From NCBI GenBank assembly GCA_963848295.1, contig CAWKDB010000010.1, forward strand, positions 1,408,001 to 1,472,000: DNA of 64,000 bases. The letters run 5' to 3'. The stretch is from an uncultured delta proteobacterium (lineage in GTDB: Bacteria; Myxococcota_A; Polyangia; Haliangiales; Haliangiaceae). The notes below the pieces were generated by a model. It was not told the DNA's origin. It saw only the letters and a list, made by a program, of their open reading frames with translations, and searched no databases. A program made the translations under genes and the position numbers. This document shows, one piece after another, positions 16,412 to 21,397 of this stretch (positions are counted from its first letter, which is position 1; each line of letters opens with the position of its first letter).

Positions 16412-19400
16412 ATGAGCGCGAAGCATTGGGTCGGGCTGCTCTTCATTGTTGCAGTTGGGGCGTGGTCGCGTGGGGCGCGAGCCGCGAACGTGATCACGAT
16501 GAACCCGGATCCGGTGGACGCCGGGTCAGTCCGGGTCGGTACGCCGAGCACGGTGTTCGGCAGTCTTACCGATTCCGGTGCCGACTCGGTCGACCTCGCG
16601 ATCGATGGCGCGTGCACGTACGCGGCGGACTTCGCGCTCGGCGCGACCACGATGACCGATCTATCGATCTCGAGCACGGCGCTACCGATCCAGGTGACGT
16701 TCACGCCGTCGACCGACGCGCTCGAGAACTGCAACGTGTTCGTCTACACGACCGGCACGATGATCGAGCTCGGCAACTTCCACGTCCAGGGGACGGGCGG
16801 CGATCCGATGATCACGGTCACCCCGGCGTCGCCCGCCAATTTCGGCAGCGTGCGCGTCGCCGGCGGCTCGAGCACGGTCACGATCGTCGTCAAGAACACC
16901 TCGGGCGACACCGGCACCGCGGCGAACCTCGTGATCCCGGTCGGCGGGCTCACGCTCGGCGGGGTGAGCCCCGGCGACTACTCGATCATGACCGCGCCGA
17001 CGCTGCCCGCGACGATCGCGCCCGGAGGGTCGGCGAACGTCGTCGTGAAGTTCGACCCGACCGCGACCGGCACGCGCACGGCGGAGCTCGACATCGCGAG
17101 CAACGACCCGACCACCGCGACGTACAAAGAGGGCCTCACCGGCGACGGCACCGCCGCGCTGATCAACGTGACCGACGTCAGCTTCGGCACGCTGCTCGGC
17201 GGCGCGACCGGCACGGGCTCGATCATGGTGCAGAACACCGCGATGATGGGCGGCACGAACCTGAACGTGACGGCGGCGGCGATCACGCAGTCGTCGACGT
17301 GGTTCTCTTTCACCGGGGCGGGCGGCTGCGCACCGGGCTCGACGGTGTGCACGTTCTCGCCGCCGACCATGATCGCATCGGGTGGCATGGCGACCGTCGG
17401 CGTCCAGTGCCATCCGCCAGCGAACGCGAACACATCGCAGACCGCGACGGTCACGTTCACGAGCGATAGCGATCCGGGCGGCAACAACGTGGCGATGCTG
17501 TCGTGCACTGGAAGCTCGCCCGACATCACGCTGACGATGCCGGCGACGACGCCGGTCAACTTCGGCACGGTGGAAGTGCGCCCGGCGAACGCCAGTGCAC
17601 CGGCCACGCTGCAGTTCACGAACACCGGCACGGCGACGCTGAACATCACGAATGTCGCGTTGCCGGCGAGCCCGGACTTCGCCGTCACGAACGGCCCGCT
17701 CGGGCCGCAGACCACGCCGGTCGCCGCGGGAGCGACCGCGAGCTGGCAGGTCGTGTGTGAACCGACGACGTTCGGGACACGGACCGGGACGTTCCAGGTC
17801 ACGAGCGATGCGCAGAACGCGAGCACGCTCAACATCGGCCTGACCTGCGTCGGCAACCAGGCGATCCTCGCGGTCTCCTCACCCGCGTTCGGCGGCGTGA
17901 ATGAAGGCGACACCTCGAACAAGACCGTCACGCTCACCAACAACGGCAACGTCCCGATCACGAACATCTCGTACATGTTCGCGAACGCGGCGCTCGGCTA
18001 CAGCGTGACCGCGCCGACGTTCCCGATCGCATCGCTGAACCCCGGCACCCCGATCAACGTGACCGTGCAATTCGCGCCCGTCGCCGGCATGGACGGCGGT
18101 CCGGACGACCTCACGTTCAGCGGCGTCTGGGGCACGGCGCCGACCGCGATCAGCCAGGCCGCGCACTGCACCGGTACCGGCTTGAAGCCGGGCTGGGACG
18201 TGTCACCGGCGACGGTCGATTACGGTGACATGCGGTGGGACGCCACCTCCCCGATGACGTTCACGATCACACTGACCGGGACGTCGCCGACGACGTTCAA
18301 CGAGATCGATGTCGCATCGAATGCCGGCACGCCCGCAGGCGAGTTCCACCCGCCGACGTTGATCAAGCACGGCGGCACGACCGTCACCTTGCCGTTCCAG
18401 CTCACGACCACGAGCGACACGCTCGTCGTCACGATCCCCGCGGGTCCAGCGACGCAGCTCGGTCCGCTCGCCGGCACGGTCACGGTCCGCAGCGACTCCG
18501 CCGCGATCCCGACGCGCAGCCTCCAGCTCACCGCGAACGCGGTTGCGCCCGAGCTCACACTCGACCCCGGCGCGACCGTGCCGTTCGGCCCGGTCGACAT
18601 CCAAGGTCCCGCGCAGCACACGACCATCACGATCACGAACGGCGGCGACGGTCCGCTCAACCTCGGCGCGGTGACCGCGGCCGGCGGCAGCGCGCGGATC
18701 ACGTTCCCGAATGGCCTGCCGACCGCGCAAGTCATCCCGGCCGGCGGCATGGTCGCGATCGCGGTGACGTATGCGCCCACGCTGGTCGCGAATGACACCA
18801 CGACGCTGGTCGCGCCGCTCACCGGCTTGTTCGGCGCCCCCCAGCCGATGAACCAGATGATCATGATCACCGGCCGCGGCATCACGCGCGCGATCCAGGT
18901 CGGCGCTACCCCGACGTTCCCGGACACGTTCCGCAACCCGGGCAGCGACGCGCCGGTCCTGCCGTTACACGTTCACAACGGTGGCGAAGCGACGCTCTCG
19001 ATCTCGACCGTGATGCTCTCGAGCTCGCCGGTGTGGACGCTCGCCGACCCGGCGCCCGTCGACATCCCCGGCGACGGCGACCACGACTTCATGATCAAGT
19101 TCGCGCCGACGATGGCGGGCAAGGCGCCCGATGGCCAGCTCACGCTCGTGGATAACGATACCGGCACGCCGATGGTCGTCGTCGATCTCAAAGGCAACGG
19201 CCTCGACCGCGCGGTCGAGCTAGGGCCGCTATCGATCAACCTCGGCTATACCGGCGTCGGGATCCCGGTCCGGCTCTCTGACCTCGCGCCCGACAACTTG
19301 CTGAACGTGACGAGCCTCGACGGCAACGACACGTTCCAGATCCGCGCGATCTCGCTCGACGGCGACGACACGAGCGTGTTCGAGGTCGAAGATTCGTCGG

Positions 19401-21397
19401 GCAATACCCCGACGAACATCGCGCTCGCGCCAAACATGACCGACTCGTTCGACGTGGTGTTCAACCCGACCGCGGTCGGCGACTACACCGCGACCGCGAC
19501 GCTGTTCCTCGACCAAGATCCAACCGGGCAGGCGCAGGTCACGATCGAAGGTCACGCGGTCTACGTCGAGGCGAACGGTGGCGGCGGCTGCAACGCCGGT
19601 AATCGCGGCGGCGGCGGTGGCGCGCTCGTCATCGTGGGCGCTGCGCTGCTCGCCAGGCGCAGGCGGCGGCGCGCGGCGGGCGTCGTGATCGCCGCCGCGG
19701 CAGCGTGCGTCGTCGGCGAGGTCGCGCATGCCGAGCCGAGCCGCAACCTCGACCTGACGATGTTCGATCCGACCCCGGCGACGACCGGCACCGGGTTCCA
19801 GCTCCAGGCCGCGACCACGGGCAGCAACGGCGACCTCGTCGCGAACGCGCTCGTGTCGTATTCGAGCGAGCCGCTCGTGCTGGCGACGGTGCAGAACAAC
19901 GACACCGCGATCAAGAACCGCACGATGCTCGAGCTCGGCGGTGCCTACGCGTTCCTCGGTCGCTTCGAAGCTGGCCTGCGCATGCCGATCTACTTGCAGA
20001 GCGGCGACGACATCGATTCGTCGATGATGTTCGGTGTTCCGGCGGCGAGCGGCGCGGCGCGCGGCGATCTGACGCTACACGGTAAGGCTCAGCTGTGGCA
20101 CGGCCCGCTCGGCGGCGACTTCGCGGTCGCGATCGGCGCTGCGCTCACGCTGCCGACCGCCTCGTCCGACGAGTTCGCCGGCGTCACGAACCCGACCGGA
20201 CGCGTGCTCGCGCTCGCGCAGCTCACGCCCGACGTGCTCGCTCATCGGCTGTCGTTCGCGGTGAACGCCGGCGCGGTGCTGCGCGCTCGCAGCGAGTTCG
20301 CGAACATCGATCAAGGCAGCGGGCTCGACTGGGGCGTCGGCGCGTCGTACCGCGTCCTCGACCCGCTAACCGCGTCGGCCGAGATGTTCGGCGAGCTCGT
20401 GCCGTCCGGAGAGCTCGCCGCCGACGGCAGCAAGCGCGCTCTCGACACGATCGAATACCTCGTCGGCGTTCACTACCAGCTCGAGCGCCGGTTCAACCTC
20501 GGCGCGGCAGTCGGTCGCGGGCTCGACTCGGGGCTCGGCGCACCCGCGTTCTTCGGCGCGGTCACGCTCGCGTTCGTGCCGATGGCTCGGACCCAGCTGC
20601 CGATCGGTACGGTCGTGCACGAGCCGCATGACAGCGACGGCGACGGCATCGACGACAGCGTCGACAAGTGCCCGAACGAGCCGGAAGACAAGGACGGCTT
20701 CCAGGATCAAGACGGCTGCCCTGATCTCGACAACGACAACGACGGCATCCCCGACGCGCAGGACAAGTGCCCGAACGAGCCGGAGGACAAAGACGGCTTC
20801 CAGGATCAGGACGGCTGCCCCGATCCCGACAACGACAACGACGGCATCCCGGACGCGAAAGACAAGTGTCCGAACGATCCCGAGGACAAAGACGGCTTCC
20901 AAGATCAGGATGGCTGCCCCGACCCGGATAACGACAACGACGGCATCCCCGACACGAAGGATCGTTGCCCGAACGAGCCCGAGACGATCAACGGCTACCA
21001 AGATGACGACGGTTGCCCCGATAAGGGCGACCCGCTGGTCATCGTCAGCGAGGATCGCATCGAGCTGCTCGAGCCGATCGAGTTCTCCGGTACGAAGATC
21101 AAGGGCTCGAGCTTCAACCTGCTCGGTCAGGTCGGCGCTCAGCTGCGCGCGCACAAAGAGATCAAGCGGCTGCGTGTCACCGTCCACGTCCAGCCGACCT
21201 CGAATCCCACACGCGATCAGGAGATCACCGACAAGCGCGCACAAGCGGTGCGCGACTGGCTCGCCCAATGGGGCATCGACGAGAAGCGGATCGAGCCGCG
21301 CGGGTTCGGCGGCACCAAGCCCCTCGTCCCGGCAGACTCGAAGGGCGCGGCGGCGATCAACGAGCGGGTCGAGCTGATCGTGCTCGTGCGCGAGTAG
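16412..21397 (+). CDS. Large envelope protein: signal peptide, about 8-9 ASH/choice-of-anchor-D Ig-like domains, internal MYXO-CTERM-like segment, OM beta-barrel, TSP3 repeats, OmpA-like C-terminus
   Basis: Repeated FG.V.V...T.T..N.G...L....V.F.P motifs; GGGGC...TM...RRRRRR at aa ~1056-1087; barrel-type alternating strands; D.D.DGI.D..DKCP repeats; RAQAVRDWL...RGFGGTKP...NERVE. Confidence 0.88.
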   Translation: MSAKHWVGLLFIVAVGAWSRGARAANVITMNPDPVDAGSVRVGTPSTVFGSLTDSGADSVDLAIDGACTYAADFALGATTMTDLSISSTALPIQVTFTPSTDALENCNVFVYTTGTMIELGNFHVQGTGGDPMITVTPASPANFGSVRVAGGSSTVTIVVKNTSGDTGTAANLVIPVGGLTLGGVSPGDYSIMTAPTLPATIAPGGSANVVVKFDPTATGTRTAELDIASNDPTTATYKEGLTGDGTAALINVTDVSFGTLLGGATGTGSIMVQNTAMMGGTNLNVTAAAITQSSTWFSFTGAGGCAPGSTVCTFSPPTMIASGGMATVGVQCHPPANANTSQTATVTFTSDSDPGGNNVAMLSCTGSSPDITLTMPATTPVNFGTVEVRPANASAPATLQFTNTGTATLNITNVALPASPDFAVTNGPLGPQTTPVAAGATASWQVVCEPTTFGTRTGTFQVTSDAQNASTLNIGLTCVGNQAILAVSSPAFGGVNEGDTSNKTVTLTNNGNVPITNISYMFANAALGYSVTAPTFPIASLNPGTPINVTVQFAPVAGMDGGPDDLTFSGVWGTAPTAISQAAHCTGTGLKPGWDVSPATVDYGDMRWDATSPMTFTITLTGTSPTTFNEIDVASNAGTPAGEFHPPTLIKHGGTTVTLPFQLTTTSDTLVVTIPAGPATQLGPLAGTVTVRSDSAAIPTRSLQLTANAVAPELTLDPGATVPFGPVDIQGPAQHTTITITNGGDGPLNLGAVTAAGGSARITFPNGLPTAQVIPAGGMVAIAVTYAPTLVANDTTTLVAPLTGLFGAPQPMNQMIMITGRGITRAIQVGATPTFPDTFRNPGSDAPVLPLHVHNGGEATLSISTVMLSSSPVWTLADPAPVDIPGDGDHDFMIKFAPTMAGKAPDGQLTLVDNDTGTPMVVVDLKGNGLDRAVELGPLSINLGYTGVGIPVRLSDLAPDNLLNVTSLDGNDTFQIRAISLDGDDTSVFEVEDSSGNTPTNIALAPNMTDSFDVVFNPTAVGDYTATATLFLDQDPTGQAQVTIEGHAVYVEANGGGGCNAGNRGGGGGALVIVGAALLARRRRRRAAGVVIAAAAACVVGEVAHAEPSRNLDLTMFDPTPATTGTGFQLQAATTGSNGDLVANALVSYSSEPLVLATVQNNDTAIKNRTMLELGGAYAFLGRFEAGLRMPIYLQSGDDIDSSMMFGVPAASGAARGDLTLHGKAQLWHGPLGGDFAVAIGAALTLPTASSDEFAGVTNPTGRVLALAQLTPDVLAHRLSFAVNAGAVLRARSEFANIDQGSGLDWGVGASYRVLDPLTASAEMFGELVPSGELAADGSKRALDTIEYLVGVHYQLERRFNLGAAVGRGLDSGLGAPAFFGAVTLAFVPMARTQLPIGTVVHEPHDSDGDGIDDSVDKCPNEPEDKDGFQDQDGCPDLDNDNDGIPDAQDKCPNEPEDKDGFQDQDGCPDPDNDNDGIPDAKDKCPNDPEDKDGFQDQDGCPDPDNDNDGIPDTKDRCPNEPETINGYQDDDGCPDKGDPLVIVSEDRIELLEPIEFSGTKIKGSSFNLLGQVGAQLRAHKEIKRLRVTVHVQPTSNPTRDQEITDKRAQAVRDWLAQWGIDEKRIEPRGFGGTKPLVPADSKGAAAINERVELIVLVRE
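20630..21022 (+). repeat. Four 99-bp coding tandem repeats (thrombospondin type-3 Ca-binding repeats)
   Basis: 33-aa unit of the form DNDNDGIPDxxDKCPNEPEDKDGFQDQDGCPDx, four copies. Confidence 0.92.

Follow-up and report, generated by a model that had tools for sequence, protein, structure and literature searches.

At positions 16412-21397 of the window (the whole stretch of 64,000 nucleotides analysed here, from an uncultured delta proteobacterium) lies an open reading frame on the + strand that encodes 1661 aa and has zero internal stops. The product begins with an N-terminal Sec-type signal peptide, read off the sequence (aa 1-24, with an A-R-A end; 16412-16483), which is followed by an Ig-like stalk of nine choice-of-anchor D/ASH-type repeats (aa 25-1055; 16484-19576). 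The NF012200 profile scores 186.7 bits on this N-terminal half, over nine choice-of-anchor D stretches, and Pfam gives ASH/HYDIN Ig domains. The stalk leads into an internal MYXO-CTERM tag (19577-19672; TIGR03901 and TIGR03382), made up of a Gly-rich motif with Cys1060 (19589-19591), a hydrophobic helix and a run of six Arg. The tag overlaps a second, internal Sec-type signal peptide (19655-19732), recognized by alignment and from split genes, in which the same six Arg precede a hydrophobic core and A-H-A stands before Glu1108. Residue by residue, the joint at 19577-19732 thus reads Gly4-Cys1060, a Gly linker, hydrophobic aa 1071-1081, Arg 1082-1087 and a 20-aa hydrophobic stretch with the A-H-A end, after which E-P follows at 19733; the Arg run serves both as the end of the tag and as the charged region of the second signal peptide. 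The remainder consists of a predicted beta-barrel of the outer membrane that has a non-strand segment at its N terminus and a FapF/COG4313-like fold (19733-20596; AlphaFold2 and fold comparison), thrombospondin type 3 (TSP3) repeats (20627-21037; PF02412 and sequence) and an OmpA-like C-terminal domain (21086-21382; PF00691 and alignment). The Pfam barrel model PF13557 matches at 22.6 bits, just above its cut-off of 22. An earlier note on this DNA had described a signal peptide with an ASH-type Ig stalk, an uninterrupted joint and a C-terminal half in the order barrel, TSP3 and OmpA-like domain; the profile matches recover these parts in that order, and the letters of the joint are as the note gave them, in a frame without a stop.

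The same note had called the tag MYXO-CTERM-like, a reading borne out by the profiles. On TIGR03901 the joint scores 20.0-21.7 bits (20.8 in the genome-wide search), which is right at the curated cut-off of 20, and on TIGR03382 it scores 17.8-19.6 bits against a cut-off of 15.85. MYXO-CTERM is expected at the C terminus, and here 574 residues lie downstream of it; rare internal cases are noted in the available text of PMC11980579. The tag resembles the terminal tags of the same genome and those of split relatives. Its Cys and one Arg are invariant in all 28 aligned fused joints, and the hydrophobic stretches drift freely. In a larger set of 148 profile-aligned segments, the Cys is present in 121 of 122 filled cells, in an alignment that leans to the profile.

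Relatives of the gene were found, at E 1e-20, in 82 of 91 genomes of the genus, and at most loci long enough to tell the gene is placed between an FKBP gene and comF. The earlier note had set a conserved fused junction against split two-gene versions; in the genus the joint is in one frame at 82 of 92 loci (74 genomes), with three short rows excluded from the count as upstream halves of split loci. A stop occurs further on, inside the barrel, at one of the 82, and the other ten loci comprise six that are split, three that are in frame but short or divergent and one that is not judgeable. Two unpublished genomes (G010 and G057) are included in these counts and in the tree below, and no claim is based on them alone. 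A strict joint pattern also fits 76 of 83 long database proteins. By these comparisons, the single-frame fusion is genuine and conserved.

At the six split loci, the Ig gene stops 0-4 residues past the Arg run and the barrel gene opens at a GTG, overlapping the Ig-gene stop by 4 or 8 nt, much like a coupled gene pair (compare TraA/TraB, as described in the text available). Each of the six barrel genes has an ordinary signal peptide that ends at the same site as in the fused joints. In a tree of 52 barrels, rooted by midpoint, the six split loci fall into two sets, both surrounded by fused rows, which requires two changes; a topology with all split loci in one clade is rejected (p-AU 1.7e-62). 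Since the fused forms of the order's other families branch off outside every split and fused row of the genus, an old fusion that later underwent fission is the simpler explanation. On the tree, at least two separate fissions gave the six two-gene versions. Across the phylum, a profile of joint plus barrel has matches in 158 of 201 genomes, many of them via stand-alone barrels; the best 29 of these loci comprise 13 fused forms, which include seven families outside the gene's own order, 11 stand-alone barrels, 2 two-gene pairs and 3 that are unreadable.

The second signal peptide, with its AxA site, had likewise been claimed from the letters of this one gene, and it survives comparison with the relatives. 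The sites were called by pattern and alignment, and the stretch has the basic region, the hydrophobic core and the small residues at -3 and -1 of an internal Sec/signal peptidase I substrate. The -1 Ala is invariant in 28 of 28 aligned fused joints and occurs in 128 of 136 filled cells of the 148 profile-aligned segments (again with a lean to the profile). Among 43 fused joints taken from the loci retrieved, 40 have A-x-A ahead of the barrel start, and A-x-A then D/E/Q/N/G stands just ahead of the barrel in 36, compared with 8.5 expected from shuffles (the related genomes are non-independent). The six split genes use this same site. By these comparative tests, the second signal peptide is real. 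At one locus (L058, G041:C537, upstream of 5107), the signal-peptide region is present in about three tandem copies ahead of the barrel, with the frame kept.

The joint recurs in other families of the genome. The genome has 42 MYXO-CTERM profile matches, of which three others run on from the tag into a second hydrophobic stretch with a lipobox-like Cys end. Two of these are large proteins with an internal MYXO-CTERM and a second lipobox signal (L072, G000:C10:3543168-3547262, + strand; L073, C10:716479-720204, - strand). Both have an N-terminal lipoprotein-type signal and belong to one unannotated family of about 1240-1360 aa, with no Pfam or NCBIfam match at E 0.01; in this family the joint is in frame at 26 of 28 related loci examined, up to class level. 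The third is a choice-of-anchor V-like protein fused via tag and lipobox to a DUF4266 lipoprotein (G000:C10:4121665-4122680, - strand; about 5666-6680 of L074). This pair is fused at 10 of 30 loci examined, including 9 other genomes of the genus; at most of the remaining loci, DUF4266 is encoded by a gene of its own that has this lipobox too. In this assembly, L074 has an apparent one-base frameshift upstream of the tag. By alignment of these loci, the tag-plus-lipobox joint is conserved in two unrelated families. A pattern scan yielded six internal matches, three of which are without a signal-like second stretch bearing a clear site.

The barrel was modelled by AlphaFold2 with a mean pLDDT of 84.8; in the model of the joint, residues 27-39 and 51-69 have pLDDT below 50, which is unsurprising as the model has no membrane. 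The best fold matches of the predicted barrel are FapF (5o65; Z 22.2, rmsd 3.2, 233 aligned) and the COG4313 Pput2725-type channel (4rl8; Z 21.6, rmsd 3.0, 236 aligned), and Foldseek gives E 1e-9. Identity to these channels is 10-15%; a shared fold shows no function, and the barrel here differs from both in its additional TSP3 and OmpA-like domains. In the OmpA-like domain, Gln1594 aligns with the H-T-D Asp of solved OmpA domains, and Arg1609 is kept 15 residues on, the same spacing as in the diaminopimelate (DAP)-binding pair Asp271/Arg286 of Acinetobacter baumannii OmpA described in the accessible text of PMC5974059. The Asp is retained in only 2 of 98 readable close relatives (of 153 examined), compared with 47 of 50 readable distant ones (of 76), so by alignment the DAP-binding Asp is lost family-wide. 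Anchoring of the OmpA-like domain to the peptidoglycan wall is doubtful because this residue is missing in the family of this gene. At 21185-21240 of the window and its equivalents, H-V-Q, H-V-H or H-V-N replace H-T-D in the family.

The layout of this protein is already in print. In the available text, Guo, Haft and Wall 2025 (PMC11980579) describe MXAN_5598 of Myxococcus xanthus as an adhesin with an internal MYXO-CTERM, a barrel and OmpA, compare it to a fusion of TraA with TraB and suggest that its N-terminal half undergoes processing; MXAN_5598 is also included in a vesicle proteomics table in the accessible part of PMC4158809. Compared with that published description, the gene here has the same large adhesin region, internal tag, barrel and OmpA in one frame. 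It differs in its neighbours, as MXAN_5598 adjoins ftsA/ftsZ whereas the gene here sits between the FKBP gene and comF, and in its stalk, which is of the choice-of-anchor D type with no AgmC_N domain. The N-terminal domain of AgmC (NF047640) had no match in the gene's own genome at E 1e-30 and was absent from the matches to the N-terminal half. An AgmC_N search aimed at MXAN_5598-like loci brought 4 of 151 genomes over the cut-off; one of the four loci has a terminal tag, one ends a few residues past a tag-like stretch and two are cut by the contig. The available text of PMC11980579 leaves a second signal peptide and re-export of the barrel unmentioned, and its Table S1, which colours signal peptides, may show one. 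In the accessible part of the Haft preprint, neither 'internal' nor 'fusion' was found, and a literature search, with most subscription journals outside its reach, found no paper on a retained second signal peptide. What the present analysis adds is the second signal peptide, the cases of natural fission, the versions with lipoprotein signals and the loss of the Asp.

The conserved fusion, the MYXO-CTERM tag and the second signal peptide together imply a hairpin topology at the joint, for which established Sec rules give the order of export, stop-transfer and restart. The precursor would enter the inner membrane as a hairpin of two helices: the Ig stalk would be exported via the first signal peptide, the MYXO-CTERM helix would stop transfer with the Arg run staying in the cytoplasm, and the second hydrophobic stretch would restart export. 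Signal peptidase I would cut after Ala1107 and so free the barrel for outer-membrane insertion; Cys1060 would be lipidated, a myxosortase would cut behind it and a type II secretion system (T2SS) would carry the stalk to the surface. Judged from sequence, one precursor is likely cut twice, by myxosortase and signal peptidase I, and would give equal amounts of two products: a surface protein made of the Ig stalk with a predicted lipid anchor and, separate from it, a predicted barrel of the outer membrane. The genome encodes candidates for each step: one myxosortase-core gene (NF040914 Mrt_core, 105.1 bits against a cut-off of 100), which fails the MrtX, MrtC and MrtP models in the profile search, and three signal peptidase I loci and two T2SS secretins, all over their cut-offs. 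The available text of PMC11980579 reports that the tag Cys is required for cleavage of TraA by MrtX; in the same text, T2SS transport to the surface after lipidation and the myxosortase cut is a proposal for TraA, and action of a myxosortase on a tag with a second helix behind it is a proposal only. As far as its domains indicate, the protein most likely serves as a housekeeping adhesin at the cell surface, with a barrel partner of its own, rather than in kin-specific membrane exchange ('adhesin' being a label based on the Ig repeats alone).

If signal peptidase I were the sole cutter, the barrel would be released, but the stalk would keep its hairpin and stay in the inner membrane or reach the surface uncut. 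The tag here precedes a second helix, a setting outside those tried for MrtX, and the Discussion of PMC11980579, in the text available, states that without MrtX part of a MYXO-CTERM protein gets to the surface uncut. We nevertheless give a single cut a small chance, as the Cys is invariant in all 28 rows and the tag is like the terminal tags of the same genome and of split relatives.

The earlier note went further and read the gene as a single-gene TraAB-like contact system. Its conserved fusion, MYXO-CTERM tag and second signal peptide stand, but the contact system is unsupported. A role in kin recognition and outer-membrane exchange of the TraAB type would be compatible with two cuts in one precursor, and there are likenesses to TraA/TraB (NF033763; PMC12045341 and PMC6372800, as far as their text was available): a MYXO-CTERM surface protein is followed by barrel, TSP3 and OmpA in the order of traA-traB, the TraB model matches the barrel half at E 1.6e-9, and TraA and TraB act 1:1 according to the available text of PMC12045341. 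The tip domain is also the least conserved part in distant relatives (10-33%, global alignment); in a close relative, however, it is 84% identical, like the other domains. Here the parts are in one frame, and the Ig stalk replaces the PA14-like domain and Cys-rich repeats of TraA. No PA14-like domain or Cys-rich repeats were found in the N-terminal half with Pfam and NCBIfam profiles, which a distant PA14 homologue could escape, and there are just 9 Cys in 1059 aa. The whole protein scores 172.2 bits on the TraB model NF033763, far below the cut-off of 700, the barrel alone scores 36.3 bits, and the wall-binding Asp is absent. A different gene reaches 201 bits, with a separate MYXO-CTERM gene ahead of it, and the TraB cut-off is not reached by any locus of the genome, which is 85% complete. 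Outer-membrane exchange by this protein is thus unsupported by its profile matches and domains, and a TraAB-type function has, in our estimate, a somewhat smaller chance than a single cut. Given its low conservation in distant relatives, the tip may still have a recognition role. The higher-scoring gene belongs to L075 (G000:C2:559016-562000, - strand), in which a TSP3-repeat MYXO-CTERM gene has a barrel-OmpA gene directly behind it; the latter is the best TraB-model match of the genome, under the cut-off.

The barrel might instead be made from an in-frame internal translation start, in which case the fusion would be two genes sharing one frame. In the split relatives, the barrel's start codon is indeed a GTG within the Arg run or directly behind it, and an in-frame ATG, GTG or TTG occurs somewhere in the tag region of 38 of 43 fused joints. 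The position of this codon is not conserved, however; just 2 of 43 joints have an SD-like word ahead of an in-frame start, and in 23 of 43 no such codon lies close to the Arg run. Four complete joints lack any start codon from the Cys through the Arg run, among them that of G104 (89% identical to the gene here), which is without a start codon all the way from the Cys to the cleavage site. The gene itself has a single in-frame GTG, within the first helix and without an SD-like word. As the frame has no stop, translation from the upstream start would still yield an Ig half joined to the barrel. These codon comparisons make an internal restart unlikely, and we see only a slim chance for it.

An uncut, autotransporter-like protein, whose barrel would export the attached Ig stalk and whose joint would be a linker, is very unlikely. 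The barrel model also matches the autotransporters Hbp (Z 17.4) and NalP (Z 17.3), but FapF and COG4313 score higher, TSP3 and OmpA-like domains lie C-terminal of the barrel, the joint consists of two hydrophobic stretches flanking six Arg, and in the split relatives the barrel has its own signal peptide and the stalk a normal tag. Loss of a stop between two genes through assembly error is already refuted by the relatives, with 82 genus loci fused in one frame, one of them 89% identical, and 76 of 83 long database proteins fitting the joint pattern, even though an apparent frameshift of one base does occur at least once elsewhere in the assembly (L074 near 6040). Among the public sequencing runs listed for this DNA there was no RNA run, the best DNA share was 0.13, and among the contig pieces listed none runs across the joint.

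Cleavage of one precursor at the two sites remains our preferred reading. Membrane chains that are split at an internal signal peptide include the cytochrome b-c1 precursor FbcH of Bradyrhizobium and viral envelope polyproteins with anchor-plus-signal hairpins. These are unrelated proteins and differ from the one here in that they are not known to involve a Cys sorting tag or a second protease. To our knowledge, bacterial secretory polyproteins with cuts by two different membrane proteases have rarely been described. If both cuts occur, they would explain how the barrel is exported behind a stop-transfer tag, a point left open in the available text of PMC11980579. The fused and split alleles of one gene form a ready-made control pair, and the pairing of parts in a fusion hints at which barrel serves which surface protein. 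For annotation, genes of this fused type, which are listed as single 'choice-of-anchor D' or 'OmpA' proteins, likely have two products. A broader reading is possible, if on the doubtful side: the tag-Arg-signal hairpin may be a general, reversible polyprotein joint of myxobacteria, processed by signal peptidase I or signal peptidase II, with at least three unrelated partner pairs in this genome and conversion into two genes by a small frameshift, and the FapF-like barrel without the wall-binding Asp may serve specifically its own lipidated stalk, as a dock or exit port, and not be a wall anchor. A dock or exit port of this kind would explain why stalk and barrel are made 1:1 from one chain.

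Among relatives, the last two Ig repeats of the stalk are the best conserved (identity by domain). One repeat (P0001 aa 711-825; 18542-18886) is 64% identical to that of a relative that is 84-99% identical elsewhere, and is possibly a swapped module, judging from the alignment. At L050 (G003:C326, 5149-8704), two Ig-stalk genes with stops occur in tandem and the barrel is absent in 14 kb; the same genome has a fused copy elsewhere.
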